The notes under the pieces: model-generated | Seen by the model: the letters and a program-made list of their open reading frames with translations, nothing else | Database searches by the model: none | What the model was told of the DNA's origin: nothing | Virus record (IMG/VR): IMGVR_UViG_3300037264_003947 | Span: 1-59,304 of that record | Length of the DNA: 59,304 nucleotides | Source: a virus | Taxonomy: Duplodnaviria > Caudoviricetes | Direction: 5' to 3' (one strand) | Shown here: positions 712 through 23,655 of the stretch, in pieces | Position numbering within the stretch: position 1 is the first letter of the stretch | How the letters are laid out: each line of letters starts with the position of its first letter | Position numbers and translations under genes: made by a program

Positions 712-753
712 TAACTAGTCTCATTTATCTTTCCAATATGGTAAAAAGGTTAT

Positions 754-2721: not shown

Positions 2722-2722
2722 T

Positions 2723-3555: not shown

Positions 3556-3633
3556 TGCTTTTTACCTGTTTTATCTTTTCCAAAAAATTTTGTGTCCTTT
3601 TCTATATTACAACTAACGCAAATTTTAACCATT

Positions 3634-6484: not shown

Positions 6485-6505
6485 AATATTCCTTATATAT
6501 TATAT

Positions 6506-6778
6506 ATGGATGATATAAATAAAAGATGGGAAGATGCTATAGCAAAAGCTAAAATATTATTGGTTCAATATAATGAGCTTGATAAGACGCACGAAAAATA
6601 TACTTTTCGCTCTGTTATAGACGCTCTAGAAGCTTACCTTTACTTAGCAGATGTTTATAAAAGAGAAAGCATTGCCGTATTACATAGACTAGAAGCTATG
6701 ACTTTAGATATAGAGGCGTGGAGAGATAGAATACCTATAGGACCAGGCAGAAGAAAAATGGGACACGATTTTATCTAG
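6506..6778 (+). CDS. Hypothetical protein on the opposite strand within the packaging cluster
   Basis: Fills the gap between TerL and 6771..7199; ATG at 6506 preferred to the ORF-track start. Confidence 0.5.
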   Translation: MDDINKRWEDAIAKAKILLVQYNELDKTHEKYTFRSVIDALEAYLYLADVYKRESIAVLHRLEAMTLDIEAWRDRIPIGPGRRKMGHDFI

Positions 6779-7199
6779 TCTTTTTTTCTTTTCTTATTGC
6801 GCTTAAATCTATTCCAGCTTTTTTACCTGGCATTGAGTTAAACATAATACCGATATTTGTCTTCATTTCATCGGCCTTAGTTCTTATCTTCAAAAGCTCT
6901 ATCAAGTTTTTACTTGCTTCAATTTTAAGCTCTAGCGCGCGCGTGATAGCTTCTTTTGAAGCTTCAGTTCTGTCTTTATCTAAACCTAGATTGGTGAAGA
7001 AAAGTTCAAAAATTTTATCAGCTTTCTTTCTATCGTCTTGTGTCATTTTAACTAGACCTTCTGCGATAGAATTAATGTCTTCTACATCAAGCTCCAAATC
7101 TTTTCTTTTTTTAGCTAATTCTTTATCATCAATGACGACTGGCATTTTTTCTTTCTCATCCATTTCGTCTAACATTTCGTCTATTAAATCTTTACCCAT
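6771..7199 (-). CDS. Helical hypothetical protein, possible terminase small subunit
   Basis: Size, two-helix pattern and position upstream of TerL; positional inference only. Confidence 0.4.
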   Translation of the reverse strand: MGKDLIDEMLDEMDEKEKMPVVIDDKELAKKRKDLELDVEDINSIAEGLVKMTQDDRKKADKIFELFFTNLGLDKDRTEASKEAITRALELKIEASKNLIELLKIRTKADEMKTNIGIMFNSMPGKKAGIDLSAIRKEKKTR

Positions 7200-7819
7200 T
7201 ATTTCATACCTTCATTTATTTTTCTCAAAACATCTATATCACTTCCATCTTTAGGTCTAGCTCTATTACATTTTCTACATATATATCTTATATTAGATTT
7301 TATGTGAGAGCCACCAATGTTTATTGGAATAATATGGTCTAGATTATATTGGTTTGGTCCTAAAGTTTCTACTAAATTAACCCCACAAATTTTACAATAT
7401 AATGTTGTTTTTTTAAGTTCTCTTAAAAATTTTTTATCAACATCTGTATTAGAATTTTCTATTATTTCTCTTCTTTTATGAGCATTATTAGTATATCTAT
7501 CTATATGTTTTTTATAATCTTGTTTATTTTTTAATTTATATCTTTCTGGAAATTTTTCTCTCCAAGCATTTCTACTTAATTTAATTTTTTCTGGAAATCT
7601 TTTAGCATATTCTTTTTTATATTCTTGCCTTTGCTTATTATATACTTCTTTATGTTTTTCATTACATCTTCGACTAGCTTCTTTCACAGAATTTTTATTT
7701 TTATTTTTCCAAATTATAATGCATAACTTGCACCAATAATGCAAGCCATCTTTATTATATTTATTCTTATAGAAATCTGTCTCATTTTTTTCTTTTTTAC
7801 ACTTAGAACAAATTTTCAT
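7199..7819 (-). CDS. HNH homing endonuclease
   Basis: MKICSKC..FYKN..GL..WCK.C zinc ribbon; CKICG...LDHIIP..GGSH..SNIRYICRKCN; probable ATG at 7819. Confidence 0.88.
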   Translation of the reverse strand: MKICSKCKKEKNETDFYKNKYNKDGLHYWCKLCIIIWKNKNKNSVKEASRRCNEKHKEVYNKQRQEYKKEYAKRFPEKIKLSRNAWREKFPERYKLKNKQDYKKHIDRYTNNAHKRREIIENSNTDVDKKFLRELKKTTLYCKICGVNLVETLGPNQYNLDHIIPINIGGSHIKSNIRYICRKCNRARPKDGSDIDVLRKINEGMK

Positions 7820-7820
7820 T

Positions 7821-8507
7821 TTAGCGAATACCTTCAAATATATCACTATTGTAGCGACTCAAATCATTTACAAATTCTCTTATTTGATTATTCTTCACGC
7901 CTAGAGATCTACCCCAAGCATAAAGGTCAGATTTGCCTACAAACTTCTTCGTTTTTCTAAGATAATCAAGTATAATACTTGCTATCTTAATATACCTTGT
8001 CCTCTTAGTTCCTATAAAATTTTCGTCTATAACACCAAATAAAGTATTTTCCAGCTCGTCAAAAAACAGATCATAATTCATCGTTTCTTTTGCCTCTAAA
8101 TCTAACTCATCATCTATATTCTTGTGATTTCTATGTTTTTGTTTTCGGTCCGTATAGTTAAGCAAGCTTATTTTTGATATAATGCTGTAGTAGTTAAAAG
8201 CAGTGCCTTTACTAGGGTCGAATTTTAAGAAGTTTGAATAGCAAGCACTTAAAGCATGTTGCTTTAAGTCATCATAATCTTCAAAGATATAATAACGATA
8301 GACTATGATGATAGCATTAACTATTTTTTCTACTTGTTTGACGAGATCGTATTCTAACTTTTCGTCCTTAATAACTACTTTGCCATCACGAAATACTAGG
8401 CTATTTTTATAGTCAAGAAGAGTTTTTCTAAATTTCTCTTCGTCAAAGTATTTCCTAGTTGATTTAAGTAATTCTCCAGACTTTTCTACATTTTCTACTT
8501 TTTCCAT
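7821..8507 (-). CDS. Phage late-transcription sigma factor, T4 gp55-like
   Basis: Sigma region-2 pattern DDLKQHALSACYSNFLKFDPSKGTAFNYYSII; located beside packaging genes. Confidence 0.75.
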   Translation of the reverse strand: MEKVENVEKSGELLKSTRKYFDEEKFRKTLLDYKNSLVFRDGKVVIKDEKLEYDLVKQVEKIVNAIIIVYRYYIFEDYDDLKQHALSACYSNFLKFDPSKGTAFNYYSIISKISLLNYTDRKQKHRNHKNIDDELDLEAKETMNYDLFFDELENTLFGVIDENFIGTKRTRYIKIASIILDYLRKTKKFVGKSDLYAWGRSLGVKNNQIREFVNDLSRYNSDIFEGIR

Positions 8508-10115: not shown

Positions 10116-10631
10116 TCAATCTTTTCCAAAGAGGCTGGCAAGTAATTTTTCAATGTTTCCATAGGTCCCACTGCTAAACGCCAACTTTTCTTTATTTGCT
10201 TCAAACCATTCAAGAGCATTATGCTTGGACTTTTGTGCTTTGCCAGCGCCAATCCAATCACATACCATTTCTTTAATATAAACTTCAGGTATATCAAATA
10301 TTTTTTGGTGTTGCTCACTCTTGTCATCCTTATCAAATGGAAGAACCCAATACTGCCAATGATGTTTATTCTTTCTTGTATGGTTTAACCATGCATATTC
10401 AAACTCTTCATTGCCAGTGTCATATGGTTTGTAATAACCTGTTTCGTCTCTTATGGATTTAATATCCCCATAAAACATTCTAGCATAGGGAAAAAATTCT
10501 TTTGGAGAAAGCTTGCTCAGATCGTGAACTAGCCCTCTCCAAATAATTCCCATTTTGGCACATTCTAAAAAGACATACCATTTATGAGCAAGAACATATT
10601 TCAAGCAGTTTAAATAATTTTTGCACTTCAT
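10116..10631 (-). CDS. HD-like protein (DUF5662-like)
   Basis: HKWYV...HDLSKLSP.EF...WLNH..KNKHHWQYW...EMVCDW. Confidence 0.7.
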   Translation of the reverse strand: MKCKNYLNCLKYVLAHKWYVFLECAKMGIIWRGLVHDLSKLSPKEFFPYARMFYGDIKSIRDETGYYKPYDTGNEEFEYAWLNHTRKNKHHWQYWVLPFDKDDKSEQHQKIFDIPEVYIKEMVCDWIGAGKAQKSKHNALEWFEANKEKLAFSSGTYGNIEKLLASLFGKD

Positions 10632-11011
10632 CCAATTGTTATATCTCTTTTGATAAGACCATTGGCAAGAGTATTGAAAGGAAGAAGCATTGAACCTTCA
10701 AGTAAAGCATTCATGTTTTTAGCACCATCAGGATTGATGGAGTGAATAATAATCTTTGCCTTGCCCAAATCTTTGGTTGATAAAAACTTAGCAAACTTAT
10801 GTCCAGTATTCGCATCTTCGGAACTCATATAGAACTCGCCATCTAGATCGTGGTCTAGTAGAAATAAACTAAATGGCTTGTTTTTCTCAAACATGACTTT
10901 TGCTTCTTCTACATTTTTTGTAACAAAAAGTTCAAAATCACGATTGGAGAAATACCACTTGAAGAACTTGATTCTGTCTGGATTATCTTCTAGTATAAAA
11001 ATCTTTCTCAT
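10628..11011 (-). CDS. Stand-alone receiver-like domain of the cyclic-phosphate-processing type
   Basis: IFILEDNPDR...LDHDL...TG...IIIHSINPDGA. Confidence 0.65.
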   Translation of the reverse strand: MRKIFILEDNPDRIKFFKWYFSNRDFELFVTKNVEEAKVMFEKNKPFSLFLLDHDLDGEFYMSSEDANTGHKFAKFLSTKDLGKAKIIIHSINPDGAKNMNALLEGSMLLPFNTLANGLIKRDITIG

Positions 11012-11755: not shown

Positions 11756-11770
11756 ATATATGATTCGAAC

Positions 11771-11843
11771 TAGGGGTAGAGGGAATCGAACCCCCAATCA
11801 ACAGATTAGAAATCTGATGCCTTATCCGTTAGGCCATACCCCC
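11771..11843 (-). tRNA. tRNA-Arg(TCT)
   Basis: Cloverleaf GGGGGTA/TACCCCT, loop TT-TCT-AA, T-loop TTCGATT; no CCA. Confidence 0.9.
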
Positions 11844-11849
11844 AAATTG

Positions 11850-12059
11850 TTATTCCTTCATTTGAAGGATTAATGCCTCATAAACCATGCGTGGAGTTAG
11901 AACAAAAGCATCAATTCCTTCTGGATGATTTGGCCCTACGGTACAATCCCTTTTAAATGGACCATAATAAACAGTGGCATTTTTTCCCTGCTTATTTAGT
12001 TCATTAACCTTATCATAGATTTCTGTAAGGGTTCCAATAAAAGTAAATCGCTTTTCCAT
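11850..12059 (-). CDS. Hypothetical protein between tRNAs
   Basis: MEKRFTF... start after an AAGGAAG SD; the ORF-track start overlaps a tRNA. Confidence 0.55.
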   Translation of the reverse strand: MEKRFTFIGTLTEIYDKVNELNKQGKNATVYYGPFKRDCTVGPNHPEGIDAFVLTPRMVYEALILQMKE

Positions 12060-12071
12060 ATTAACTTCCTT

Positions 12072-12143
12072 TTGGGGCAGATGGATTCGAACCACCGCGT
12101 GCAAGCTTCAGAGACTCGCGCCTTACCACTTGGCCATGCCCCA
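12072..12143 (-). tRNA. tRNA-Gln(CTG)
   Basis: TGGGGCA/TGCCCCA acceptor, loop CT-CTG-AA, TTCGAAT. Confidence 0.9.
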
Positions 12144-12148
12144 TAGCA

Positions 12149-12221
12149 TTGTCCCGGAACGGTTCGAACGTTCGACCTTGAGCTTCAAAGACTCCAACTC
12201 TACCAGCTGAGCTACGGGACA
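12149..12221 (-). tRNA. tRNA-Gln(TTG)
   Basis: TGTCCCG/CGGGACA acceptor, loop CT-TTG-AA, TTCGAAC. Confidence 0.88.
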
Positions 12222-12242
12222 CAATTATATCTTCACAAATAT

Positions 12243-12271
12243 ATTATAACGGATTTATTATTTTTCGTCAA
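12243..12271 (-). promoter_or_regulatory. Sigma70-type promoter for the tRNA-Gln pair
   Basis: TTGACG-17 bp-TATAAT. Confidence 0.75.
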
Positions 12272-12450
12272 TCGCTTGCAAGATCTTTTGGTTTTCTTGC
12301 TGTAGCGTGACAGGAATCACACTCTGCCTGTGGAGTTAGCTTACCATGAGCAAATCTGGAGACAACTTTTACGATTCCACCACAACGACAAAGATTAGTC
12401 TTTGTCTTTACGTTATGGCCTACTTTTGCCTGACCCTTTGGGACGTTCAT
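12268..12450 (-). CDS. Small zinc-ribbon protein
   Basis: CRCGG...CDSC. Confidence 0.5.
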   Translation of the reverse strand: MNVPKGQAKVGHNVKTKTNLCRCGGIVKVVSRFAHGKLTPQAECDSCHATARKPKDLASD

Positions 12451-12588
12451 TTACAATCACTTCCTTCCTAACTGGTTTCTTTACTAAACGATACTTAATC
12501 AAAATATACATTAATCCAAGTGTCTCAATGATAGAAATAATACACAGCGCTATAAAAGCAACTGTAAAAATACCATCTAAATTTTGCA

Positions 12589-12759
12589 TTACTTTTTACT
12601 AGGAAGACAGGCCACTACGATTAGGCCAATAATGCCCAAGAAAAATCCCCAGCAAAAACCACCACCTGGACTTCTTCCCTTCTCCTTACTAATATATCTA
12701 GTAATAAGACCAAGACCAACCCAAACCGCTAGCGAAATAACCCAAACCAATGGCTCCAT
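12589..12759 (-). CDS. Small two-TM membrane protein (below the ORF-track cutoff)
   Basis: MEPLVWVISLAVWVGLGLITRYISKEKGRSPGGGFCWGFFLGIIGLIVVACLPSKK with AGGAG SD. Confidence 0.65.
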   Translation of the reverse strand: MEPLVWVISLAVWVGLGLITRYISKEKGRSPGGGFCWGFFLGIIGLIVVACLPSKK

Positions 12760-12894
12760 TTTAAACTCCTATCTCTTTGGCTTTTCGTAAGCTTTTGAAT
12801 TTACTTTTGGACGCCTTAGAACAGCTCCAACGCCAATTATAATAATTACCAATGCAATTGAAAAACCTATTAAACCATTCATTTTACTTACCTC

Positions 12895-12966
12895 TGAGGC
12901 CACCAGGGTTCGAACCTGGGCATGGAAGATTAAAAGTCTCCTGGCTTACCACTTGCCTATGACCCC
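12895..12966 (-). tRNA. tRNA-Lys(TTT)
   Basis: GGGGTCA/TGGCCTC, loop CT-TTT-AA, TTCGAAC. Confidence 0.88.
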
Positions 12967-13103
12967 AATTTCATGACGACCCGTAAAGAACGACACTTAG
13001 GACAAAAGTATTCTATCCATTTCAAGCCTTCGCTCTTTTTGATCATTTCACGATTGCACTTGTCATTAGGGCAATTCATAAGCTCCTCCTTTTTAAAAGA
13101 ATT

Positions 13104-13430
13104 TTAACCTCTATGAGAATCTATATCTACCGTAAAGCGCATGTTAGGATCAGCACTCTCGCCAGTTAGAATAGCAATTACGTCAACGTCTCTAATGAGA
13201 ACGTATTCCTTCTTGCCTTCCTTACGGCGAATCATTGCTCCATAAGCATTAACAGCAACCTTCATTCCAGACTTTAGGTCTCTATCTTTTACATAGGGAC
13301 CAACAGAAACTATAGTTCCCTCAAACTGCTTTTCAGGCATAATCTTTGGGGGGATAATAATTCCATTAATCATCTTCTCTTCGTTTCCCTCTTGCTCTAT
13401 CACCAAATAATTCTGTAACGGAATAATCAT
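13104..13430 (-). CDS. groES: Co-chaperonin GroES/Cpn10-like
   Basis: IPLQNYLVI...GIIIP...EGTIVSVGP...LKSG..V...YVLIRDVDVIAIL. Confidence 0.85.
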   Translation of the reverse strand: MIIPLQNYLVIEQEGNEEKMINGIIIPPKIMPEKQFEGTIVSVGPYVKDRDLKSGMKVAVNAYGAMIRRKEGKKEYVLIRDVDVIAILTGESADPNMRFTVDIDSHRG

Positions 13431-13451
13431 AAATGCTCCTTTTAAATTATA

Positions 13452-13523
13452 TACGGGATGTAAGATTTGAACTTACGACTTTTACGGTGTAAACGTAACA
13501 CTCTACCGCTGAGTTAATCCCGC
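13452..13523 (-). tRNA. tRNA-Val(TAC)
   Basis: GCGGGAT/ATCCCGT, loop TT-TAC-AC, TTCAAAT. Confidence 0.9.
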
Positions 13524-13724
13524 ATTAAACAACTATCGTATTCAAAAAATCTTCTAATGTCCAAGCATAACGATGTATGTATGTATAATGATTCTTGTAT
13601 TCTGTTGGTTTCTGTTTTGTTTCGAGCCCTATTCTTAATTCTCCTGCTATTTTTTTACCGTAAGTAAAAAATCTTTTAGTAAATAGACCGTGTATAAGCA
13701 ATACTTTGTTTGTCATAAAAATAT

Positions 13725-13797
13725 TGGGAGTATCTGGATTTGATCCAGTTTTCATGGTTTATAAGACCAATGAGAACACCGTCCTCAACCTACTCCC
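13725..13797 (-). tRNA. Atypical tRNA-Ile(TAT)
   Basis: GGGAGTA/TACTCCC acceptor, loop CT-TAT-AA, non-canonical T-loop ATCAAAT. Confidence 0.65.
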
Positions 13798-14210
13798 TTG
13801 TTTGTTCTACCCCTAAATCTATAATTCTTATCAATTGCCGAATGACAATTTGGGCAAACAATTAAAAGATTTTCTCTTTTATTATTTTTATTGTCATCAT
13901 CTATATGATGAATTTCTAACCAAATTTGTTTTCCCAACCATTCATTGTTCTTACAAACTTCACAAGAATTTTTAGCTTCTTCAAGTAAAACCTTTCTCCT
14001 AAATTTAGGACTTAGTTTCTCATATAATCCTAGTTCTAAATAACTTTCATTGTTTACCCTGTGTCTCTCTACAGTTTTTTCCGTAGATTTTTTTCTATCT
14101 TCTTCTGTGAAGACATGTCCTCCACGATAAACGTGAGTTCTTCCCTTTAAGGATTCTCTTATCTTATTTTTAGTCTCTTCTGTATGTTTAAAACCAATTT
14201 CTCTAGACAT
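13785..14210 (-). CDS. HNH endonuclease with NUMOD3-like motif
   Basis: GFKHTEETKNKIRESLKG; CEVC..W....LEIHHID...NKRENL..CPNCH; probable ATG at 14210. Confidence 0.87.
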   Translation of the reverse strand: MSREIGFKHTEETKNKIRESLKGRTHVYRGGHVFTEEDRKKSTEKTVERHRVNNESYLELGLYEKLSPKFRRKVLLEEAKNSCEVCKNNEWLGKQIWLEIHHIDDDNKNNKRENLLIVCPNCHSAIDKNYRFRGRTNKGVG

Positions 14211-14224
14211 TAACCTTATATTAC

Positions 14225-14253
14225 ATTTTACAATATATATCAATTTCTGTCAA
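14225..14253 (-). promoter_or_regulatory. Sigma70-type promoter
   Basis: TTGACA-17 bp-TAAAAT. Confidence 0.75.
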
Positions 14254-14264
14254 TTTATTTTACG

Positions 14265-14339
14265 CCAGAGTAGCGGGGTTCGAACCCACAAGTCGTCGCG
14301 TTCGTAGCGCGAAATTTTATCCATTTAAACTATACTCTG
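14265..14339 (-). tRNA. tRNA-Arg(ACG)
   Basis: CAGAGTA/TACTCTG, TCGCG-CT-ACG-AA-CGCGA, TTCGAAC. Confidence 0.9.
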
Positions 14340-14764: not shown

Positions 14765-15610
14765 TCATTTGCTAGCAGTAGCAATAATTTCCCAGTTCTT
14801 GAAAGCATAATAATATTCAAGAATACTCTTTAAATCACCAGACTTATAGTTAGCTTCTGGAATTTCACCTTTACCATCTTCCCAATACTTAGCTATTATT
14901 TGATTTTCGTCATGGTTGAGAAGAGCAAAAATAACCCAGTCTTCACGGTTATTAAAAGTTCTCATTAAATCATCCATACGAGCAACAAGCAATCTTAAGC
15001 TTTCGGTTGGATTTTGTAAAGTTTCTCTTCCTTTATACGCCACTCTTAATGCCTGATTTTCTTTTACTATAGGTAAGTTAGCAATTTGCTGTCCCTCTAC
15101 CGTAAAGAAACCAGAAATACCAGTTTGATAATTATCGCTAAAACTTGGATTATAATTTGTCTTAACTCTCATATACGCGAGAGGCAAGAAAAAGTTTACA
15201 GAATTAACTGTATAAATTGCGTCATGATAAGTATTGAAAGCTAGTAAAAGTTGTTCATCGCTCATTTTTTGGCTTAGTGGAGAAGCCACTGTATAATATT
15301 TTATAATTTCATAGAACCTACTTCTCAACTTCTCTTTTCTCTCATTGATTGAAAGTCGTTCCCAACTATTTGCTGTTTCAATCTGTGAGCGAGAATCAAT
15401 TATCTCTCTCGTATTTTCTATATAATTTTTATAAAGTGCGTCTGCTGTTCTCTTATTAAAATAAACACCTAAACCCATAGCGGTAACAAACACTATTATT
15501 AATGCCACCATTATACCAACTAAACGTTGTGGTAATGTTTCTGGTTTAAGCTTACTTATAAAGTTATTCACTGCATTACCCTCTACTACATGTGTAATTT
15601 TTTTCTTCAT
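14765..15610 (-). CDS. Membrane-anchored protein with a degenerate lytic-transglycosylase-like domain
   Basis: One N-terminal TM; LAYMRVKTNYNP and LQNPTESLRL..RMDDLMRTF..DWVIFAL resemble SLT motifs but lack the catalytic Glu. Confidence 0.45.
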   Translation of the reverse strand: MKKKITHVVEGNAVNNFISKLKPETLPQRLVGIMVALIIVFVTAMGLGVYFNKRTADALYKNYIENTREIIDSRSQIETANSWERLSINERKEKLRSRFYEIIKYYTVASPLSQKMSDEQLLLAFNTYHDAIYTVNSVNFFLPLAYMRVKTNYNPSFSDNYQTGISGFFTVEGQQIANLPIVKENQALRVAYKGRETLQNPTESLRLLVARMDDLMRTFNNREDWVIFALLNHDENQIIAKYWEDGKGEIPEANYKSGDLKSILEYYYAFKNWEIIATASK

Positions 15611-15614: not shown

Positions 15615-16364
15615 TTATCCTCTTAATCTATCTGTCGCAATCTGTATATATTTATCGTCTATATCAAAACCGATAAATTGTCTGTCTAAATCTTTTGCTA
15701 CTTTAAGTGTAGTGCCACAACCAGCAAATGGATCTAGAACTACATCGCCTTTATAGCTAAACATTTTAATCAATCTTCTAGGTAATTCTTCTGGAAACAT
15801 TGCTGGGTGTCCAAATTTTTTCATTTTTGTTTCTGGAGGAAAACTCCAAAGAGCAAGAGAGTTAGTTATAAACTCTTCTCTCGTTAAATCGCTCTCTCCT
15901 TTATGTATGAGTTTGCGACTGTTCTTATAGAAAACAAGTATGTATTCGAAAGGAGTAGGAAAAGAAGGACTTGATGGCGAAAGCCAACTACCCCAGCTAG
16001 TCCTATTGCTTACTTGAGATTTATTCCAAATTATTGTAGTGAAAGGTTTGTAACCAATGTCTATTAGAAACGAGGAAATGAAAACACTTGTTGGTATTGA
16101 ACCATTTTGCTGATCGCCAATATTTATACAAACACGGCCATCATCGGTGAGCTTATCCCATAGAGCAGTAAAAATACTTCTCAGCCAAGCAATATATTCT
16201 AGAAAATCTTTATCATCTTTATATGTATTATAGATGATTTTCTTTTTCTTCGCAGTATTGCCTAAATTATAAGGTGGGGAAGTTACACACAAATGAATAG
16301 AACTGTTTGGAAGGGAAGAAATCCCTTCCAAACAGTCCATCTTGTAAATGGAGTTTGGCTCCAT
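15615..16364 (-). CDS. DNA amino-methyltransferase, beta class, probably m4C
   Basis: VTSPPYN catalytic motif before HPAMFP and VLDPFAGCGTT. Confidence 0.9.
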   Translation of the reverse strand: MEPNSIYKMDCLEGISSLPNSSIHLCVTSPPYNLGNTAKKKKIIYNTYKDDKDFLEYIAWLRSIFTALWDKLTDDGRVCINIGDQQNGSIPTSVFISSFLIDIGYKPFTTIIWNKSQVSNRTSWGSWLSPSSPSFPTPFEYILVFYKNSRKLIHKGESDLTREEFITNSLALWSFPPETKMKKFGHPAMFPEELPRRLIKMFSYKGDVVLDPFAGCGTTLKVAKDLDRQFIGFDIDDKYIQIATDRLRG

Positions 16365-16798
16365 TACTTATCCTTGAAATATCTGAATGCTCTGTCCTGC
16401 ATTTCTCTCAAGCCGTCTAGCACCGCCGCTAACTTTGGCAGTCCACTAGTTGCGACATTGCCAATATGCTCGGATTCACCGAAATACTTGTTCTCAATAG
16501 TGTAATCCAAGAACTTAGCAATCCAGTAGTCTACTCCACGCATTGCTCTGCCAGCCGCTCGCTTTATGGCTTCCTCTCTGTCCCATGTGTCAATGTTATG
16601 GCACAAGCTCCAGCCGATACGATCCCTACCCAAAGCTACTATAACGCCAAACGGTCTGCCTTTCTGCTTTCCGTCAGTTGGAGTGGTTGGATCTGTCTTT
16701 GGGGCGTTTCTCCGCAAGTAGTTAACAAGTATTGGATACTTCTTACCACTGATAGTCACTGCGGAGCAATTGTCCATTTCCACTTTAAAATTAGGCAT
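16364..16798 (-). CDS. Hypothetical phage protein
   Basis: 144 aa with GGAGG SD; GWSLCH..D.WD....A.GRA. Confidence 0.65.
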   Translation of the reverse strand: MPNFKVEMDNCSAVTISGKKYPILVNYLRRNAPKTDPTTPTDGKQKGRPFGVIVALGRDRIGWSLCHNIDTWDREEAIKRAAGRAMRGVDYWIAKFLDYTIENKYFGESEHIGNVATSGLPKLAAVLDGLREMQDRAFRYFKDK

Positions 16799-16818: not shown

Positions 16819-16841
16819 ATAGGGGGTTTAGAACCCCCTAT
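16819..16841. terminator. Hairpin downstream of the Ro60 gene
   Basis: ATAGGGGGTT-TAG-AACCCCCTAT. Confidence 0.65.
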
Positions 16842-16847: not shown

Positions 16848-18440
16848 CTAGAGATTTCCATTTGCGATCATCTGGATAAATCGTGGAGTCTCAGAGGAGA
16901 AACCAGCGATATCGTAGGACTTGTTATCCTTTGGATCGCTCAAAGAACTTCTATCGGAATAAGGAGTAAGAACAACGTAGATGATTTTCGCATCAGCGTT
17001 AATCGTGTCCCTATACTTCTTCATCAAGGTAACAGGTTGCTTGCCCTGCCAGTTCTGTCCATCAGTCCAAATCACAAGGTTATCAGCCTTGAGCTTGTTG
17101 TCGATGGCAAACTGAATTGCACTTTCAACGTCAGTTCCAGCAGGAGTCATTGGCATGAAGCCACGGCTCAAAGCTTCCTTGAAAGAGGTCGTCTTTCGAA
17201 GCTTTGGAAAATCGCTCGTTGTGGTCGTAAAGGCAGAAGTAAAGTAATACTTCTCTGCCTTGATCGTAGCAAGAGCCATGATCGTAGCGACCTCGGAAGG
17301 TGTCATCCACATCGTCTCCAAAGGAGCAGTCTGCATAGAGCCAGAAACGTCGATTGAATGATAGAATACCTTGTTGGTTGGCTCAAGAGCAGTGAAAGCC
17401 TCTTCAACCGCCTTCTCAAGAATATCCTCGACAACTGGATGAGCAACCCAAGTCAACTGAGAACGACCAAGAGTTCCACTAGCAGAGTAAATCTTGTAGG
17501 CAGAAACGATGTTGATAGGGTGAACCCTACCCTTCACCAATCTCTCTTTCGTGAACTTCTCTTCAAGAACCTTGAGGTTCTCAATGTTGGTGAAAATACC
17601 CTTGTTAGTCAAATTGGCCAAGTTACGCAAAGTAGCCGTAATAGGCATCTTGGTGAAAAGAGCTTCCCAAATACCCTTGGTTCGTGCTACGTTTGCTGGA
17701 ATCATTTCCTGAGTCAAACCGAAATCAAGGATTGCCTTGATGACATCTGCCTCTTTCATATTTCCAGTCTTGAGAGACTCATAAATCCCGATGAGAGGAA
17801 GAGTCTCAATAGAAGCCTTCTTATCAGCCATCCAAGCAAACAGATTGCTTTCGGATGCATCCCGTGGAACTGGCTTGATCTTCCGAAGAACATCACGACC
17901 AGCCCAATTGTATCTGCTCTGATACTTGAGGAACTGATACTCAAGGCCCTTTACATCATGAGACGTAATCCACTTCTCGACTGCGGAATGAATAAGTCTA
18001 CCAAAGCCACGAAGGCCCTTGGTATACTCAAGGAACTCATAAAGGTGAGAAGCGGTTCTCACAATCTTATTGAAGATCTGTGAGAAATAAACCTTTGCAT
18101 CAATACCTCCCATAGAGAGATAAACAAGAGCAAGCAAAGGCGTGTGGTTATTGATTCCATGATCACTTGCGTAAACGATTTCGTCCGCAACGACCTTTGG
18201 ATCTTTTGCAACCATGCAGGAAAGAATCTTGACGTTTTCAGTCGTCAACTCTTCCTTACCCTGATAGAAAAGGTTATTCTCAGAGCCAGTCAAGAGCCAG
18301 CGTCTAAGAGCCGTGAGGTCATCGGCCACGAAAGCCTTACCCCCAGCCATGTTCTCAGTCATTTCAGCCTCTCGGCCAGGAATAACCTGAGTAGCAAGAA
18401 CATCCTTCTTCTTTGTGTGGAACGTGTAGCCAGACTTCAT
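16848..18440 (-). CDS. rsr: Ro60-related RNA-binding protein (TROVE + vWA)
   Basis: N.AGG.AF, LRRWLLTGS, KYQSRYNW..RDVLR, MPITATLRNL, RVHPI, vWA DVSGSM and TD MIDAS residues, DIAGFS. Confidence 0.93.
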   Translation of the reverse strand: MKSGYTFHTKKKDVLATQVIPGREAEMTENMAGGKAFVADDLTALRRWLLTGSENNLFYQGKEELTTENVKILSCMVAKDPKVVADEIVYASDHGINNHTPLLALVYLSMGGIDAKVYFSQIFNKIVRTASHLYEFLEYTKGLRGFGRLIHSAVEKWITSHDVKGLEYQFLKYQSRYNWAGRDVLRKIKPVPRDASESNLFAWMADKKASIETLPLIGIYESLKTGNMKEADVIKAILDFGLTQEMIPANVARTKGIWEALFTKMPITATLRNLANLTNKGIFTNIENLKVLEEKFTKERLVKGRVHPINIVSAYKIYSASGTLGRSQLTWVAHPVVEDILEKAVEEAFTALEPTNKVFYHSIDVSGSMQTAPLETMWMTPSEVATIMALATIKAEKYYFTSAFTTTTSDFPKLRKTTSFKEALSRGFMPMTPAGTDVESAIQFAIDNKLKADNLVIWTDGQNWQGKQPVTLMKKYRDTINADAKIIYVVLTPYSDRSSLSDPKDNKSYDIAGFSSETPRFIQMIANGNL

Positions 18441-18474
18441 TTTCAGCTACCTCCTTGATAGAATTTGTGAGATA

Positions 18475-18503
18475 ATTATACTAAATTTTTTGTTTTTTGT
18501 AAA
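18475..18503 (-). promoter_or_regulatory. Sigma70-type promoter for Ro60
   Basis: TTTACA-17 bp-TATAAT. Confidence 0.7.
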
Positions 18504-18511
18504 GAGAAAAC

Positions 18512-18573
18512 AGGGAACAAGTTTTTATCCAAAGGCTGCTTTTTCATAGTTAACCTTTAGAATTCAGTTCTCT
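18512..18573 (-). ncRNA. Y RNA-like element 7 (minimal, ~62 nt)
   Basis: AGAGAACTGA...GGTTAAC...CTTGTTCCCT terminal stem. Confidence 0.65.
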
Positions 18574-18592
18574 TTATTTAAGCAAAAAAAGT

Positions 18593-18759
18593 GCGGGAAC
18601 CAGGGCAACAAGAAAACGAATAATGATAAGCTTCATGATGATGGATGAATCTTATATCATTGCTGCTTTTTAAACCATGAAAAAGACTAGCGAAAACATA
18701 TCCTTAAATGCATCATTGGCTTCTAATGAATTTGTTAACGTCTTCTAGTCAGTTCCCGC
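18593..18759 (-). ncRNA. Y RNA-like element 6 (long, not tRNA-like)
   Basis: GCGGGAACTGA...CGTTAAC...CTGGTTCCCGC terminal stem. Confidence 0.65.
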
Positions 18760-18774
18760 TAAAGTTTCAAAGAA

Positions 18775-18840
18775 AACGAACAAGAAATTGTCGATAGGCA
18801 CTAACTTTACAAATGTTAACCTAAAGACGAGCAGTTCGTT
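18775..18840 (-). ncRNA. Y RNA-like element 5 (minimal)
   Basis: AACGAACTGC...GGTTAAC...CTTGTTCGTT. Confidence 0.62.
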
Positions 18841-18841
18841 A

Positions 18842-18912
18842 AGCGACCAACGGGAGTCGGACCCGTTTGTAAACCTTGGCAAGGTTTCATAATACCGTTA
18901 TATCATGGTCGC
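18842..18912 (-). tRNA. tRNA-Gly(GCC) inside the Y RNA array
   Basis: GCGACCA/TGGTCGC, AAACC-TT-GCC-AA-GGTTT, variant T-loop TCCGACT, U73. Confidence 0.82.
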
Positions 18913-18918
18913 AAAAAA

Positions 18919-19038
18919 AGGGCAAGACTTGTATTTGGCAAAACAACCACTATAGGGAAAGTGGGCGAAGGATTCGAGCCTTCTATAAATTTTGGTTAGA
19001 AAATTTAATTATCCAGGTAACCAAATATCTTCAGCCCT
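18919..19038 (-). ncRNA. Y RNA-like element 4 with T-arm
   Basis: AGGGCTGA...GGTTACC...GAAGG-CTCGAAT-CCTTC...CTTGCCCT. Confidence 0.68.
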
Positions 19039-19051
19039 ATTATTTTCAAAG

Positions 19052-19157
19052 AAAAAGAACAAGGTTTAATAAGAAGTATGCCCCCACTGGGCTTCCCCCA
19101 CGAAGCGGGGGAAAGAAGATTCGAACTTTTGATAACTTCTCATTATCAGTTCTTTTT
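19052..19157 (-). ncRNA. YrlA-like Y RNA 3 (tRNA mimic)
   Basis: AGAACTGA...AGTTATC, T-loop GTTCGAATC, closed acceptor-like stem TTCCCCC..GGGGGAA, D-arm GCCC-AGTGG-GGGC, CTTGTTCT. Confidence 0.8.
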
Positions 19158-19169
19158 TAATTTCAAAAT

Positions 19170-19302
19170 GGTGAACAAGTATTTAGAAAAGGATGTTTTA
19201 GTGCTCTATCCACTAAGCTACCAGCCCACGAAATGGGCTGAGTGAGAATCGAACTCACGACCACTCAATTGTATTTGATAACCCTTCTCAAGTCAACTCA
19301 CC
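19170..19302 (-). ncRNA. YrlA-like Y RNA 2 (tRNA mimic)
   Basis: GGTGAGTTGA...GGTTATC, T-arm GTGAG-TTCGATT-CTCAC, closed stem CAGCCCA..TGGGCTG, D-arm TAGCTTAGTGGATAGAGC, CTTGTTCACC. Confidence 0.88.
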
Positions 19303-19317
19303 TTAATTATCAAAGAA

Positions 19318-19401
19318 AAGGAACAAGTATTTGAAAGACGATATTGCCCGAAGGCAGTTAATTTGCTGATAATTATGATAACGCCTCTCTGTCAGTTCCT
19401 T
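19318..19401 (-). ncRNA. Y RNA-like element 1
   Basis: AAGGAACTGA...CGTTATC...TGCC-TTCG-GGCA...CTTGTTCCTT, starting just after the promoter. Confidence 0.72.
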
Positions 19402-19409
19402 ATAAAACT

Positions 19410-19438
19410 ATCTTATCACTTCGATCGAATTCTGTCAA
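19410..19438 (-). promoter_or_regulatory. Sigma70-type promoter for the Y RNA array
   Basis: TTGACA-17 bp-TAAGAT, 8 nt before element 1. Confidence 0.8.
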
Positions 19439-19440
19439 GT

Positions 19441-20283
19441 CTACAAAGACAAAAACCACATTGGGTCTACCGTCTTTTCTCCAAAGTGAATTTCGTAATG
19501 AAGATGACAACCAGTCACTTCTCCACTAGAGCCCATAAGACCTACCACATCACCTTGCTTTACGACTTGACCTGATTTTGCTTTTATCTCGCTAAGGTGA
19601 GCGTACCAAGTCTCAAATCCTAACTCATGCTTAACTATAACTACCATACCATAAGTAGGATTTTCATATTCTACATAGGCCACAGTTCCATTCGCCGTTG
19701 CCTGTATTTCATCACCGAGCTTACCAACTAAATCAATTCCAGGATGGAACCTTAACTTGTCTTTATCTGCTACGAATAATCCCTCCCTAAATCCATACGC
19801 AGAAGATAATTTAACGGTTCCACTAGTTTTTACAGGATAGATGAAAGGTGACTCTTTAAAGTACCTATTAAAAATAACTACTCTATCCTTCAGTCCATAC
19901 AAAGAATCTAACAATTCTTTGTAAGAGTTGTATGCTTGCGTAGCATACTTAACGGTCATTTCGTCTGACCCATTAATTGCTGGTTCTAAGGAAGTTCCAC
20001 CTACAGGCATATTGGTGAAGAACATCAAATCAGCAATTTGTTTTACTACTGTCCTATAGCTCTCTTGTGTTTTGTAAGTATCGAAAACAATCTTTTTCCA
20101 CTTATCATTTTCTTCTTTTAATTGTGCATTCTCAACTTTTAATACTTCAATTTCGGCATTAACACTTGCTTGTGATACTGTTTTTCTAAACCCGAAAAAG
20201 AGGCCCAAGGCTATAATAGGAATCAACAAAAAAATAGCGAAATTCTTATTCAGCCTAAAGCCACGCTTAGGTTTCTTCTTCAT
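19441..20283 (-). CDS. M23 family peptidoglycan endopeptidase, membrane-anchored
   Basis: TM, coiled coil, HPGIDL, YAHL, TGCHLHYEI. Confidence 0.92.
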   Translation of the reverse strand: MKKKPKRGFRLNKNFAIFLLIPIIALGLFFGFRKTVSQASVNAEIEVLKVENAQLKEENDKWKKIVFDTYKTQESYRTVVKQIADLMFFTNMPVGGTSLEPAINGSDEMTVKYATQAYNSYKELLDSLYGLKDRVVIFNRYFKESPFIYPVKTSGTVKLSSAYGFREGLFVADKDKLRFHPGIDLVGKLGDEIQATANGTVAYVEYENPTYGMVVIVKHELGFETWYAHLSEIKAKSGQVVKQGDVVGLMGSSGEVTGCHLHYEIHFGEKTVDPMWFLSL

Positions 20284-20329
20284 TCACACTCCTTCCACTA
20301 TTAAAGAGCTAAAGATATATAGTTAAATT

Positions 20330-20403
20330 TGGACCAGACGGGAATTGAACCCGTGTCTCCAGTGTATCCGCTTGGGATCTGGATCGACTTCAAGCACTGG
20401 CCC
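20330..20403 (-). ncRNA. Stand-alone tmRNA-type tRNA-like domain (Ala identity)
   Basis: GGGCCAG/CTGGTCC-A with G3:U70, no D-stem, TCGA..GAC junction, ACGGG-TTCAATT-CCCGT T-arm. Confidence 0.75.
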
Positions 20404-20420
20404 CATTGCTTGTTAAAAAA

Positions 20421-20518
20421 TGCCGTTTTTTTGATACTACCTAGAATAGAGAGGAACGGCAAAACTCAGTTCTAGGAGCAGACCGCAGTTAAGCGGCGAA
20501 AGCTGTTTTGGCTTCTTG
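20421..20518 (-). ncRNA. tmRNA-like mRNA module (tag frame plus pseudoknot) upstream of the tRNA-like domain
   Basis: GAA GCC AAA ACA GCT TTC GCC GCT TAA = EAKTAFAA*; CCGC/GCGG hairpin over the stop; H-type pseudoknot. Confidence 0.6.
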
Positions 20519-20524
20519 TATTAT

Positions 20525-20553
20525 ACTTTACCAGAAGCGTTAATTCGTGTCAA
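20525..20553 (-). promoter_or_regulatory. Sigma70-type promoter for the tmRNA-like locus
   Basis: TTGACA-17 bp-TAAAGT with extended -10 TG. Confidence 0.7.
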
Positions 20554-20559
20554 GTAAAA

Positions 20560-21303
20560 CTATGCCTTAAGGGCTGGAAGTGCTGCTTTTTTACGCAAAG
20601 CATTAATTTTTTCATTATTTTTATCTGCGTAAGTCTTTAAAGCCACTTCTTCTTCGGAGGACATCTTTCTCTTTCTTACTCTATTCATAAGTTTTTTAGC
20701 CGCTACTACTCCACCAGTTATTAATAGAGCAGGAAGCATTACTTTAGCCCAAGGAGTTTTGCTGAACCAAGCTAGACCTTGCTGTGCTAGTCCCTTTGCC
20801 CAAGCAAAACCTTGCTTTAGGAAAGGAACTATAGGACCAAAGATTGCCCGACCCAATGACTTCAATTTTTCCCAAGCTCCAGTAATTATGTTGCCCATTT
20901 TAAATTGCCCAGCCATTGAAGATCTAGCTGCCATATTAGCTGGAGAATCTGCTTTAGTCCACCATAATCTATCTAGTCCTTTGGTGAACTTTACATCTGG
21001 ATAAGGGAATTTTTCTACAAGAAGATTATTAATTTCTTTTTCTGCATAACCTTCAAAAAGAAGAGGTGATTTAAGCTCGGAAAATTCCTGTAGTGTTTCA
21101 ATATCTTGGTTTACAAGAAATTCATAAAGTTCTTTTCCAGCTTCACCATATACTTCTGTATAACCTTCTACTACGGCCTTGTTTCCAAAAGCTTTTATTT
21201 CATTAGGGAGATTTTTTATAATATTGCTAAGTATATAATTCTCCCAGAACCAGTCGCCCTTATATCTAAAGGCTTCCTTTAGCAATTCTTCTCTGATTTC
21301 CAT
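20560..21303 (-). CDS. Hypothetical protein with amphipathic/TM segment, possible ejected head protein
   Basis: 247 aa; N-terminus MEIREELLKEA; internal LxE sites. Confidence 0.6.
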   Translation of the reverse strand: MEIREELLKEAFRYKGDWFWENYILSNIIKNLPNEIKAFGNKAVVEGYTEVYGEAGKELYEFLVNQDIETLQEFSELKSPLLFEGYAEKEINNLLVEKFPYPDVKFTKGLDRLWWTKADSPANMAARSSMAGQFKMGNIITGAWEKLKSLGRAIFGPIVPFLKQGFAWAKGLAQQGLAWFSKTPWAKVMLPALLITGGVVAAKKLMNRVRKRKMSSEEEVALKTYADKNNEKINALRKKAALPALKA

Positions 21304-21587
21304 TACTTATCTCCCTTTTGTATAGCTAAACGCTTTTCTGTTGATTTAGATACAATCTTTTTTTCACCCTTAAGTTTCTTTTCCATATTTAACAAACCCT
21401 TTGGACTTGTATAATAATGGGGAAACTCGGATAGATGTGCCTTAGCTATTTGCTTGGCTACATTAGGATCACTTGTGTGTTCCATCTCTATTCGAATTCC
21501 AACTTTTAAATCTCTTGGGTCAAAATTTTCATCTGGCTCTTCGCCATGCTTTAATTTTATTTCTTCAAGTAGTTCACTGAATTTCAT
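21303..21587 (-). CDS. Small conserved phage protein (DUF5661-like)
   Basis: GIRIEMEHT.DP..AKQIA.AHL.E.PHYY. Confidence 0.65.
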   Translation of the reverse strand: MKFSELLEEIKLKHGEEPDENFDPRDLKVGIRIEMEHTSDPNVAKQIAKAHLSEFPHYYTSPKGLLNMEKKLKGEKKIVSKSTEKRLAIQKGDK

Positions 21588-21588
21588 T

Positions 21589-22374
21589 TTACTTTGCCTC
21601 TAACTGCTTCTGCTTATCTGCTTCCAGAGATTTTTGTGCCTTAGCAGAATCTATCTTCTTATATTTATCGGCCTGAAGTTTAAGTGTCTGATCAGTCGGT
21701 TTTACCATCCCTCCACCAGCTACTCTTTTCTTAAGAGCCACCATGACTTTTTCGCCCTCATCCACTATGGTATGCATTATATCAATAGCCTTCCCTTTAT
21801 CTTCTCCAGTTGTGGAAAACTTTTTAAGGGTAGCTATGAAATTTTTATCTTCGTCTGTAAGTGTGGCAAACTTCATATCTTTGACCATTTCAATAGCCAT
21901 TTTACGAAGTCCAGCTATATCTGTTCCAGCATCAAGCATAGCTCTTTCTGCATCAATTTCTTTCTTCTGCTTGTCTATTGTCTTAAGGACATTTTCTTTC
22001 TTTGCTTCTGGGCTCATTCCCTTAACTACAATTTCTTCGCCCTTACGGGTCATTCCAGTTGTGCCAGTTTTATATTCCTCTGGTCTTGCACTTTTGACAC
22101 CTTTGTCTGCTGCTACTTTTGTAACAGAACTTTTAAAGGTTTCAAAATTATTTGCATCAACAGCAGGGTTTTTCTTTAAAAAAGAATTGACTGTTTTGGC
22201 AACGCCAGAAGACGAAGGATTTCCACCATACTCAATATATTTAGCGGCTGCTTCATCTACATTTCCAGACTTGATTAGCTCTACAACTTTAGCTAGTTCT
22301 GTTGCTGCCATTTCAAATAGGCCCTTCTCTTCGCCACGAGATCTATATAGAATTTCTTCTCTTAAAGATATCAT
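21589..22374 (-). CDS. Lys-rich helical hypothetical protein
   Basis: 261 aa ORF in the operon. Confidence 0.65.
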   Translation of the reverse strand: MISLREEILYRSRGEEKGLFEMAATELAKVVELIKSGNVDEAAAKYIEYGGNPSSSGVAKTVNSFLKKNPAVDANNFETFKSSVTKVAADKGVKSARPEEYKTGTTGMTRKGEEIVVKGMSPEAKKENVLKTIDKQKKEIDAERAMLDAGTDIAGLRKMAIEMVKDMKFATLTDEDKNFIATLKKFSTTGEDKGKAIDIMHTIVDEGEKVMVALKKRVAGGGMVKPTDQTLKLQADKYKKIDSAKAQKSLEADKQKQLEAK

Positions 22375-22375
22375 T

Positions 22376-22996
22376 TCATTTCTCCATTTTATTAGCTAGT
22401 CTGGGGTATACATTTTTCAATCCCAAATTTTTGACCGCTGTTATATTCTTTGCATCATCGTCGATAAAAACTATTCTATCATAATCTTTAGCTAATTTCT
22501 GTATTACATTAGCTTTCTTTTCAAAGTCAGTTTTGCCTTCGTATTTCTTTTTGTCATCATTTACAGCATGAACTAAATCTCTAACTAGCTTATCTCCTAG
22601 TAAATTTAAATCGCCAGAGGCATCTCTGTGCTTCAACCAATCTTTTATGGAATTATAAACTAAATCTTCCATTCCTCTTGCTGTAAGAATTCCTATTTTC
22701 CATCCTCGCTTAACATATTCATCAAAAATTTTTAGATTAGAAACTATTGGAAGTCCAGTTTGAATTGAATTATAAATTTTCTCTGGGTTTCTAAATTCTC
22801 TATAGTCATAATCCTTTTTAGTTTCAGGTGTTATTTTTTCTCTAGAGTATTCAGCAGGAGTTAATCCTACTTCTCCTTGAGGAGTTTTCTTATAGATTTT
22901 TATATTTTGAGGAACTACTAGAGTGTCATCTATGTCGAGGAGTAATAAACTTTGTCCTTTGTCTTCTAGTAAATCTAGAACTTCAGAAAATTTCAT
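22376..22996 (-). CDS. HAD-superfamily phosphatase
   Basis: LLLDIDDTL motif I, ILTARG motif II, FIDDDAKN motif IV. Confidence 0.8.
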   Translation of the reverse strand: MKFSEVLDLLEDKGQSLLLLDIDDTLVVPQNIKIYKKTPQGEVGLTPAEYSREKITPETKKDYDYREFRNPEKIYNSIQTGLPIVSNLKIFDEYVKRGWKIGILTARGMEDLVYNSIKDWLKHRDASGDLNLLGDKLVRDLVHAVNDDKKKYEGKTDFEKKANVIQKLAKDYDRIVFIDDDAKNITAVKNLGLKNVYPRLANKMEK

Positions 22997-23655
22997 TAAT
23001 TATTCCCGTGCAACTTTCCGTAATCTTTAAGTAGTTTCTTAAGATCCACTTTTTCCATCTTGGTTACATCGCCAGATCTATCATAAATGTTTCTAAATCT
23101 ATCTCTAGCAACATTAGAAGTCTTTCTTATTTCATCTTTTATTTTATCTGTTCTTCGTCTAGAAGCAGCATCTTTCTCTTCTTCTGCGTCTTTTTTGCTT
23201 GCTTTTTTTTCTTTGCCCTTTTCATCTTCTAGGTTTTTTACAACTTCTTCTTCACTCTTATCTTTTGTAGCTCTAAACTTATCTTTGTATTGACTCCAAG
23301 CAAAATTCATTAAGGTTTTAATATCAATATATTTGTCCAGCCACATCCAATCTTCACTTGGCTTAACATAGGCAGAGTTAGCTATCTTTAAGAGCATCCA
23401 TTTGAAACCAGTTTTTTGAGCCGTTCCAAATAAAGCCTTATCCTTATATTGAGAGATACTCTTACCAGTTCCCTCTAGAAAATCGGCATAGGGAACTCCG
23501 AATGGAAAAACAACTACCTTCTTTTCTGGAAATGCTACAAAGTGAACCTTGCCATCTTTTCCAGCTATTTCATCCATCTGTTCTTTTGTTGGATTTTCGT
23601 GCCAAACGAAATCTGGTTCAGCAGTAGTAGAATCAAATAAATTCTTAAATTTCAT
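22996..23655 (-). CDS. Hypothetical protein, paralogous to 4107..4607
   Basis: ENPTKEQMDEIA...DWMWLDKYI plus a charged C-terminal tail. Confidence 0.65.
   Translation of the reverse strand: MKFKNLFDSTTAEPDFVWHENPTKEQMDEIAGKDGKVHFVAFPEKKVVVFPFGVPYADFLEGTGKSISQYKDKALFGTAQKTGFKWMLLKIANSAYVKPSEDWMWLDKYIDIKTLMNFAWSQYKDKFRATKDKSEEEVVKNLEDEKGKEKKASKKDAEEEKDAASRRRTDKIKDEIRKTSNVARDRFRNIYDRSGDVTKMEKVDLKKLLKDYGKLHGNN

Follow-up and report, generated by a model that had tools for sequence, protein, structure and literature searches.

Background

Y RNAs of the YrlA type are encoded beside Ro60 in 254 bacteria and 22 phages, with one such RNA per phage except in CcrColossus, which has three (PMC4201824, Table S2). 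The Y RNA of D. radiodurans, together with PNPase, is the precedent for gating or tethering by an RNA of this kind (PMC4201824), and the Ro60 of Thermus phage phiLo binds two upstream Y-like RNAs, Yrl1 and Yrl2, and forms complexes with the host PNPase (PMC12135203). Here we describe an array of seven Y RNA-like units, with a tRNA-Gly gene among them, directly upstream of a Ro60 gene in IMG/VR virus record IMGVR_UViG_3300037264_003947, which represents an uncultivated phage and derives from sediment metagenomes. The whole record (59,304 bases) was analysed and is referred to below as the window; all features of the array and of Ro60 lie on its minus strand.

Xenopus Ro60 contacts the stretch GGUCCGA, and this can pair with residues at the 3' side into a bulged helix (Chen et al. 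2014; PMC4201824); bacterial YrlA RNAs carry the motif GNCGAA(N0-1)G (PMC4201824). A vertebrate Y RNA drawn with its Rfam structure consists of a stem, a 1-nt pyrimidine bulge, 2 pairs, 2 nt and a 7–8-bp stem (PMC4619022), and the 5' fragment of human Y4 reads GGUC-C-GA, 10 nt, GUUAUC (PMC5331234, Table 3).

An array of seven units upstream of Ro60

We suggest that the ~1 kb upstream of Ro60, in which no credible open reading frame (ORF) is found, is likely to be a non-coding RNA operon giving rise to seven Y RNAs and a tRNA-Gly from one promoter, with a common handle that would dock Ro60 and a variable part, the cargo, that would gate the protein or tether partners to it. The seven units (U1–U7, Table 1) follow one plan, with 5' (R)RRAC-U-GA, 9–10 nt, GUUA(U/A/C)C, a cargo of 17–115 nt and 3' CUUGUUC or a variant of it, and all of them fold with their ends paired. 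U/A-rich spacers lie between the units. On the minus strand the gene order is promoter-like site, seven units with the embedded tRNA-Gly, then Ro60, with the surrounding genes all on the same strand; U1 starts ~9 nt past the -10 element, and 72 nt separate the 3' end of the array from the Ro60 start codon. Arrays in relatives (see below) also begin after promoters, TTGACA-17-TACAAT in locus L001 and TTGACA-17-TAGTAT in L018.

The sequence-only reading of this DNA had proposed a TTGACA-17-TAAGAT promoter, seven self-closing units sharing GAAC-U-GA, GUUA(U/A/C)C and CUUGUUC with variants, covarying terminal stems and a Ro60 gene downstream. Each of these elements is found here, the motif pattern being visible in all seven units. 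Its inventory of the array was complete for the units and missed the tRNA-Gly(GCC) gene between U4 and U5, which abuts the U tail of U4 and ends 1 nt before U5.

Three of the seven units are followed directly by a repeated 3' trailer, UUUUCUUUGA(A/U)A, which has four matches in the window, three of them behind units in the array (0.21 expected); it may be a candidate processing or 3'-end signal. A plus-strand ORF of 94 aa spanning U3 and U4 belongs to no family in NCBIfam, the sole library scanned.

Table 1. Positions of the units, the embedded tRNA, the Ro60 gene and associated signals. R1 and R2 are the covariance models described in the text.
Element	Position	Strand	Description	Evidence
Promoter-like site TTGACA-17-TAAGAT	19438..19410	(-)	sigma-70-type, TG before -10	10/12 matches
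U1	19401-19318	(-)	84 nt; handle and GCC-UUCG-GGC hairpin cargo	R2 50.7 bits, in R2 training set; fold
U2	19302-19170	(-)	133 nt; variant handle GAGU-U-GA, U·G replacing C-G	R2 27.5 bits, outside R2 training
U3	19155-19054	(-)	102 nt	R2 49.0 bits, in R2 training set; fold
U4	19040-18917	(-)	124 nt; U7 tail to 18913; handle GGGC-U-GA/CUUGCCC	R2 32.9 bits, E 5.9e-5, outside R2 training
tRNA-Gly(GCC)	18912-18842	(-)	CCA not encoded	Rfam tRNA 53 bits (gathering score 29); ARAGORN call
U5	18840-18775	(-)	66 nt; minimal stem; handle GAAC-U-GC	R2 27.4 bits, E 0.0011, outside R2 training
U6	18758-18594	(-)	165 nt; 5' half and second stem as in the consensus; cargo of 115 nt without a recognised family	R2 20.6 bits, outside R2 training
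U7	18573-18512	(-)	62 nt; minimal stem, nearest consensus	R1 67.1 bits, R2 58.9 bits, in R2 training set; seed sequence
Repeated 3' trailer UUUUCUUUGA(A/U)A	19308-19319, 19044-19055, 18765-18776	(-)	directly behind U1, U3 and U5, respectively	
Promoter-like site TTTACA-17-TATAAT	18475..18503	(-)	between U7 and the Ro60 start	11/12 matches
Ro60 (Rsr) ortholog	18440..16848	(-)	530 aa, full length; TROVE ring and vWA domain	PHROG 850
Terminator-like hairpin with T run	16819..16841	(-)	just past the Ro60 stop codon; 10 pairs, 5 G-C	

Detection of the units in the window and in related phage loci

The pattern ACTG-N10-11-GTTANC has five matches in the window, all five in the array on the minus strand, compared with 0.54 expected from shuffles. 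A covariance model, R1, was built from six short units and rebuilt as R2 from 18 matches among related phage loci (U1, U3 and U7 included). In a 981-base search with filters off, R2 detected all seven units at 20.6–58.9 bits, on the minus strand only, the best plus-strand score being 7.9 bits. When 112,691 bases were searched, six of the seven were recovered at E ≤ 0.0011, and the only other match in the window had E 3.1. Among 80 unrelated viral loci (367,468 bases) holding the 5' motif by chance, R2 gave no match at E ≤ 0.01; these controls were 80 of 116 stretches returned by an IMG/VR scan with the pattern GCTGAA-N7-8-GGTTATCG, and no new array was present among the 80.

Through the Ro60 protein, six further non-redundant IMG/VR loci were found at 41–50% identity (L001, L002, L005, L006, L015 and L018), the remaining IMG/VR loci returned being duplicates of these. 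Units lie upstream of Ro60 in all six. At E ≤ 0.5 in the 112,691 bases, R2 matches three units in L001, six in L002 (one at E 0.33), three in L005, five in L006, two each in L015 and L018, and six in the window; two further units with a bulged C are seen by eye in L018. The array is thus not exceptional in this clade: each related locus has two to six units, an array being the usual arrangement, and the seven of the window are the largest set among the loci compared here.

The locus had no blastn match in the phage collection, and a search by protein showed Ro60 in named phages at only ~30% identity (352 records matched, mostly actinophages). A profile search of genome_contigs with the Ro60 alignment returned three loci, with an R2 match in L137 (27.6 bits) and none on L136 or L138. 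The Ro60 of L136, 48% identical to that of the window, sits on a 3.1-kb contig binned in a Methanosarcinales metagenome-assembled genome, with no unit on the short contig, and is probably a phage fragment in the bin rather than an archaeal gene.

Several features of the related loci were observed alongside the units. In L005, units are interleaved with seven tRNA genes at 200-3944 on the plus strand (200-272, Gln, Glu, 3549-3622, His and, just before Ro60, Trp, among them), and one unit, 654-719, lies inside the tRNA cluster at 3.3 kb from Ro60. An RNA ligase gene (PF09414 with a PHA02142 OB domain; 1206-2201, plus strand) is directly upstream of the array and Ro60 in L018 and is itself preceded by a fragment of a UvrD-like helicase with an intein splicing domain (2-1063, plus strand). 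L001 carries an ABC-transporter solute-binding protein and permease downstream of Ro60 (6223-8413, plus strand), so it may be a prophage border or a cellular locus.

The arrangement in the window could also be read as a cis-acting leader of the Ro60 mRNA, with Ro60 regulating itself through sites in its 5' untranslated region and no separate small RNAs being made. The array is on the same strand as Ro60, at a distance of 72 nt from the start codon, and the stretch from U7 to Ro60 showed no intrinsic terminator, all of which agree with such a leader. However, a near-consensus promoter stands between U7 and Ro60, the tRNA gene inside the array must be cut out, some units of the relatives are set apart from Ro60 by ORFs or kilobases (L002:1849, L002:2069 and L005:654), and the Y RNAs described so far from bacteria and phages are RNAs in their own right (PMC4201824, PMC12135203). 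We therefore hold the leader to be distinctly improbable.

A conserved and covarying handle

The handle consists of a 6-bp terminal stem closed by a C-G pair, a bulged U, one G·U pair and one A-U pair, an internal loop that is asymmetric and A-rich, and an 8-bp second stem, with GUUAnC at the mouth of the cargo. In a set of 27 units from the seven non-redundant loci (the R2 matches at E ≤ 0.5), 95.6% of 430 pair cells are paired, compared with 66.8% after shuffling and 43.8–52.3% with the partner slid. Invariant positions (27/27) are bulged U8, G9, UUA and C in GUUAnC, and U and G in CUUG, while the closing C7 and the second U of CUUG are identical in 26 of the 27. Since the alignments were model-fitted and the units model-picked, there is some circularity both in the paired percentage and in these invariant columns. 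Compensatory changes on both sides occur in 13 of the 16 pairs, comprising all eight of the second stem and five of the eight in the terminal bulged helix, where 92.6% of cells are paired. A MAFFT alignment made before any model already showed compensatory changes in 5/6 terminal-stem pairs.

The pair cells include 63 G·U and only 3 A·C, which points to a structure formed in RNA of this strand. This bears on the view that the repeats function at the DNA level, whether as protein-binding iterons, as an origin or as a recombination site, or are functionless, decaying tRNA pseudogenes, as could be suggested by tandem inverted-repeat units in non-coding sequence next to a tRNA gene, with a content that differs between strains. 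Neither a DNA cruciform nor the other strand would maintain a wobble asymmetry of this kind, and the best model score on that strand was as low as the 7.9 bits given above; the compensatory changes extend across phages whose Ro60 proteins are only 41–50% identical, and the differences between strains described below spare the invariant handle positions, except for the already deviant 18601 in U6. A role as DNA, or none at all, is thus barely credible to us, and the covariation and folds support the seven units as predicted structured RNA genes of Y RNA build.

Cargoes and their possible roles

Two units had been assigned the YrlA layout, and this is complete in one of them. By inspection and by alignment to YrlA, the cargo of U2 is a YrlA-type, circularly permuted tRNA mimic in which a T-arm, a closed acceptor of 7 bp and a D-arm are all present; the Rfam YrlA model (RF02553), the search that had been proposed as a check, matches it with a score of 33.7 bits (E 5.8e-5) where the gathering score is 69, with the other units unlisted. 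The cargo of U3 is, by eye only and with no Rfam match, a weaker form of the same layout, a partial permuted tRNA-like domain made up of a T-loop (UUCGAAU), a closed hairpin of CCCCC/GGGGG and a further, short hairpin of D-like form. An Rfam tRNA match at 19106-19227 (21.9 bits) was rejected as an artefact spanning two adjacent permuted modules, with the D-arm coming from U2 and the T-loop from U3.

The other cargo assignments of the sequence-only reading stand. A single T-arm, GAAGG-CUCGAAU-CCUUC, is present in U4 together with other hairpins, U1 is the unit with a UUCG hairpin, U5 and U7 are the two minimal units of ~65 nt, and U6 is the one with a large unrelated insert. According to the folds, a tRNA-like part is absent from four of the seven units (U1, U5, U6 and U7). 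When 15 inserts of at least 30 nt were compared all against all by blastn-short, no pair matched at E ≤ 0.01, and we take the cargoes to be mutually unrelated. T-loop or T-arm cargoes are also present in relatives (L001:3527, L002:3195, L006:3440 and L018:2700), and L001:3542-3655 is matched by the Rfam YrlA model at 36.6 bits.

It may be that the units are real but act mainly without Ro60, either as decoys or sponges for host tRNA-processing, modification or defence enzymes, or as punctuation or stability elements of a tRNA operon, the adjacency of Ro60 being secondary. This would agree with the recurrence of T-loop and T-arm cargoes in U2, U3, U4 and the four relatives, with the interleaving of units and tRNA genes in the window and in L005, and with the distance of the L005 unit from Ro60. 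Set against it, the conserved and covarying part is the handle and not the cargo, the handle is built like the Ro60-binding stem of vertebrate Y RNAs, and the majority of the units in the window have no tRNA-like part. All seven loci with units encode Ro60, although this is not an independent test because they were found through Ro60. On balance, we consider a mainly Ro60-independent function unlikely and retain the non-coding RNA operon serving Ro60 as the preferred reading.

Strain variation

DNA contigs of two sediment runs (X2 and X3), 95–99% alike to the window, bridge the array and allow strains to be compared. In both, 19055-19187 (U3 with its spacer, and the 3' strand of U2) is replaced by 15 other letters, which on the minus strand re-create a 3' handle of the CUUG type immediately ahead of the trailer; the remainder of U2 is far more diverged than the flanks. 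Two pairs in the T-stem of the tRNA-Gly are changed on both sides (18850/18851 with 18865/18866), the N of GUUAnC is changed in U4, and the deviant G of U6 (18601) becomes A. Except at the latter position, changes within units miss the invariant positions of the handle.

These differences fit a cassette-like swapping of units, with the handles and the tRNA under selection. Units are probably gained, lost and swapped between close strains via recombination in the shared handle and trailer, and such turnover hints at changing selection on the set of cargoes. A bolder version of this would make the locus a fast-evolving adaptor library whose cargoes aim the ribonucleoprotein at host RNA enzymes or at tRNA-directed defence and are exchanged as cassettes, and hence a counter-defence locus built on a handle shared from phage to vertebrate; we regard this extension as doubtful.

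The Ro60 protein

A full-length phage Ro60 downstream of the array is borne out by both Pfam domains, TROVE (81.7 bits) and vWA_Ro60 (91.8 bits), each over its cut-off, and by full-length alignments to D. radiodurans Rsr (PDB 2nvo, E 1.5e-46), Xenopus Ro60 (1yvp, E 6.7e-45) and human RO60 (9nen, E 3.9e-44). The residues of the vWA metal site (DxSxS, T, D), D364, S366, S368, T436 and D437, are invariant in five phage orthologs. The NCBIfam Rsr equivalog model scores 221.7 bits, below its cut-off of 900, and the protein is therefore regarded as a divergent ortholog. One RNA run (X6) gave two contigs, both on the Ro60 ORF, which carry no evidence either way on transcription of the array.

A proposed mechanism and the points against it

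In the operon model that we consider likely, one host-type promoter would drive a precursor holding the seven Y RNAs and the tRNA-Gly. RNase P and RNase Z would cleave this precursor at the tRNA, and host endonucleases would do so within the U/A-rich spacers, the trailer being common to three of these. Each mature RNA would then dock on the phage Ro60 through its handle, while each cargo would gate the Ro60 ring or tether a partner of its own (host exoribonucleases or enzymes that recognise tRNA, for example), so that one Ro60 scaffold could gain several specificities during infection. The gating or tethering step is proposed by analogy with the Y RNA and PNPase of D. radiodurans and with the phiLo Ro60, its two Y-like RNAs and the host PNPase.

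A number of observations weigh against this model. The Rfam Y_RNA family (RF00019) has no match at E ≤ 10 on 18300-20600 or on U7 alone, where all Rfam matches are at chance level. On none of the units does a match to an Rfam family attain the gathering score, and the match of YrlA, below that score, is to U2 only. The bacterial YrlA motif GNCGAA(N0-1)G is not present as such in the units, which read (A/G)C-U-GA(A/C/U). U6 has CUGG rather than CUUG as its 3' motif, which breaks the invariant G·U pair and would enable the helix to form without a bulge; this unit was matched by R2 only in the narrow search with filters off and was missed in the wide one. Added to the partial circularity of the pairing figures is the fact that U1, U3 and U7 had themselves trained R2. 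The second promoter precedes Ro60, so the array and the protein need not be co-expressed, and the neighbouring genes (M23 peptidase, SLT-like protein and DNA methylase) are uninformative on RNA function. Finally, binding of Ro60 by the units is inferred, and the adaptor role of each cargo is conjectural.

Rfam does not recognise this clade-specific handle, and standard annotation would therefore report only the tRNA at the array. A model similar to R2 would annotate such loci.

Other elements of the window

The window encodes a portal protein, large terminase, baseplate proteins, ribonucleotide reductase, dUTPase and a cluster of tRNA genes and has a CheckV completeness of 29%, from which we conclude that it comes from a large tailed phage and is a fragment of its genome.

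Another small non-coding locus, in which R2 has no match, is located at 20330-20553 on the minus strand, behind a promoter-like TTGACA-17-TAAAGT (20553..20525). It consists of a structured leader of ~120 nt (20404-20520) with a GAACUGA-like stretch, and of a tRNA-like element (20403-20330) in which the acceptor stem has 7 bp and the T-arm is good, whereas normal D and anticodon arms are missing. The latter element scores 29.4 bits with the Rfam tRNA model (gathering score 29) and is not called by ARAGORN. At 11770-14339 on the minus strand, six tRNA genes (Arg-TCT, Gln-CTG, Gln-TTG, Lys-TTT, Val-TAC and Arg-ACG) are found among HNH endonuclease ORFs and a GroES-like ORF, with a further weak tRNA match at 13725-13797 (30.9 bits, no ARAGORN call).

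The genes next to the Ro60 locus code for cell-wall enzymes and a DNA methylase. Near Ro60 on the minus strand (14765-15610 and 19441-20283) are genes for an M23 peptidase, the N-terminal part of which is coiled-coil or DivIC-like, and for an SLT-like protein of 281 aa, and similar genes lie within a few kb of Ro60 in relatives, in varying orientation (the M23 peptidase in L002 and L015, the 281-aa protein in L006 and L015). The 281-aa neighbour was considered as an RNA partner and rejected, being an SLT-like cell-wall enzyme (Atlas score 0.92). The ORFs at 20560-23655 and 16364-16798 have no useful family match, only a weak one to HAD hydrolases.

A DUF5662 protein and a protein with a cREC_REC domain (cyclic-phosphate processing receiver domain; 10628-11011) are encoded side by side at 10116-11011 on the minus strand, at some distance from the array. 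The cREC domain has been tied to RNA-end processing and occurs beside RNA ligases in jumbo phages, some of which also have TROVE proteins as part of RNA repair (Iyer et al. 2021; PMC7824862). Two adjacent radical SAM proteins (451 and 443 aa; PHROG 1802) are encoded at 35799-38685 on the plus strand amid ORFs without a family match.

Comparison with known Y RNA systems

The array offers a compact test system for "gate and tether", with seven natural RNAs that have a common handle and cargoes differing from a 62-nt form upward. The variable part of Y RNAs is still poorly understood, and the array would help to find partners of the tRNA-like cargoes.

With vertebrate Y RNAs the units share paired ends, a 1-nt pyrimidine bulge by a C-G pair, G·U and A-U pairs, 2 nt, an upper stem of 7–8 bp and a variable loop; the 5' strand reads C-Y-G-A and the 3' strand CUUG in both, and GUUAUC follows the upper stem in human Y4. 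Because GAAC-U-GA, 9–10 nt, GUUAYC matches the plan of GGUC-C-GA, the phage handle is nearer to the vertebrate form than to that of bacterial YrlA, and this close match to the vertebrate bulged helix bears on the age of the Ro60 recognition rule. Unlike vertebrate Y RNAs, which are single Pol III genes, the units form a phage-encoded array behind a sigma-70-type promoter, have a lower stem of 6 bp instead of 8, carry tRNA-mimic cargoes and are not matched by the Rfam vertebrate model at the threshold given above.

YrlA and YrlB of Salmonella Typhimurium, and bacterial and phage YrlA RNAs more generally, resemble the units in lying beside Ro60 on the same strand and in combining a Ro60-binding stem with a cargo, and the domain of permuted T-arm, closed acceptor and D-arm recurs in U2. 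Tandem units are known from the Caulobacter phage CcrColossus, with up to three YrlA in a row (PMC4201824, Table S2). The differences are that only U2 is clearly similar to YrlA, and then below the gathering score; that a bulged pyrimidine, C-U-GA, takes the place of GNCGAA(N0-1)G; and that the units number seven, of which five lack a full tRNA-like domain, with a real tRNA gene inside the array.

Thermus phage phiLo is similar in having Y RNA-like genes directly upstream of a phage Ro60, and there binding was seen in vitro. However, phiLo has two RNAs, found via the CGAA motif, and its protein is distant from that of the window (PDB 9kop, E 6.2e-9). In the literature covered on phage Ro60 and Y RNAs, with Table S2 of PMC4201824 as the one supplement, we found no larger phage array and no such handle. 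We conclude that the locus is a large and well supported example of a known RNA-protein partnership and not a new kind of system; what it adds to the systems described so far is a clade-specific, vertebrate-like handle missed by Rfam, the largest phage array found here, an embedded tRNA and the turnover of units between strains.

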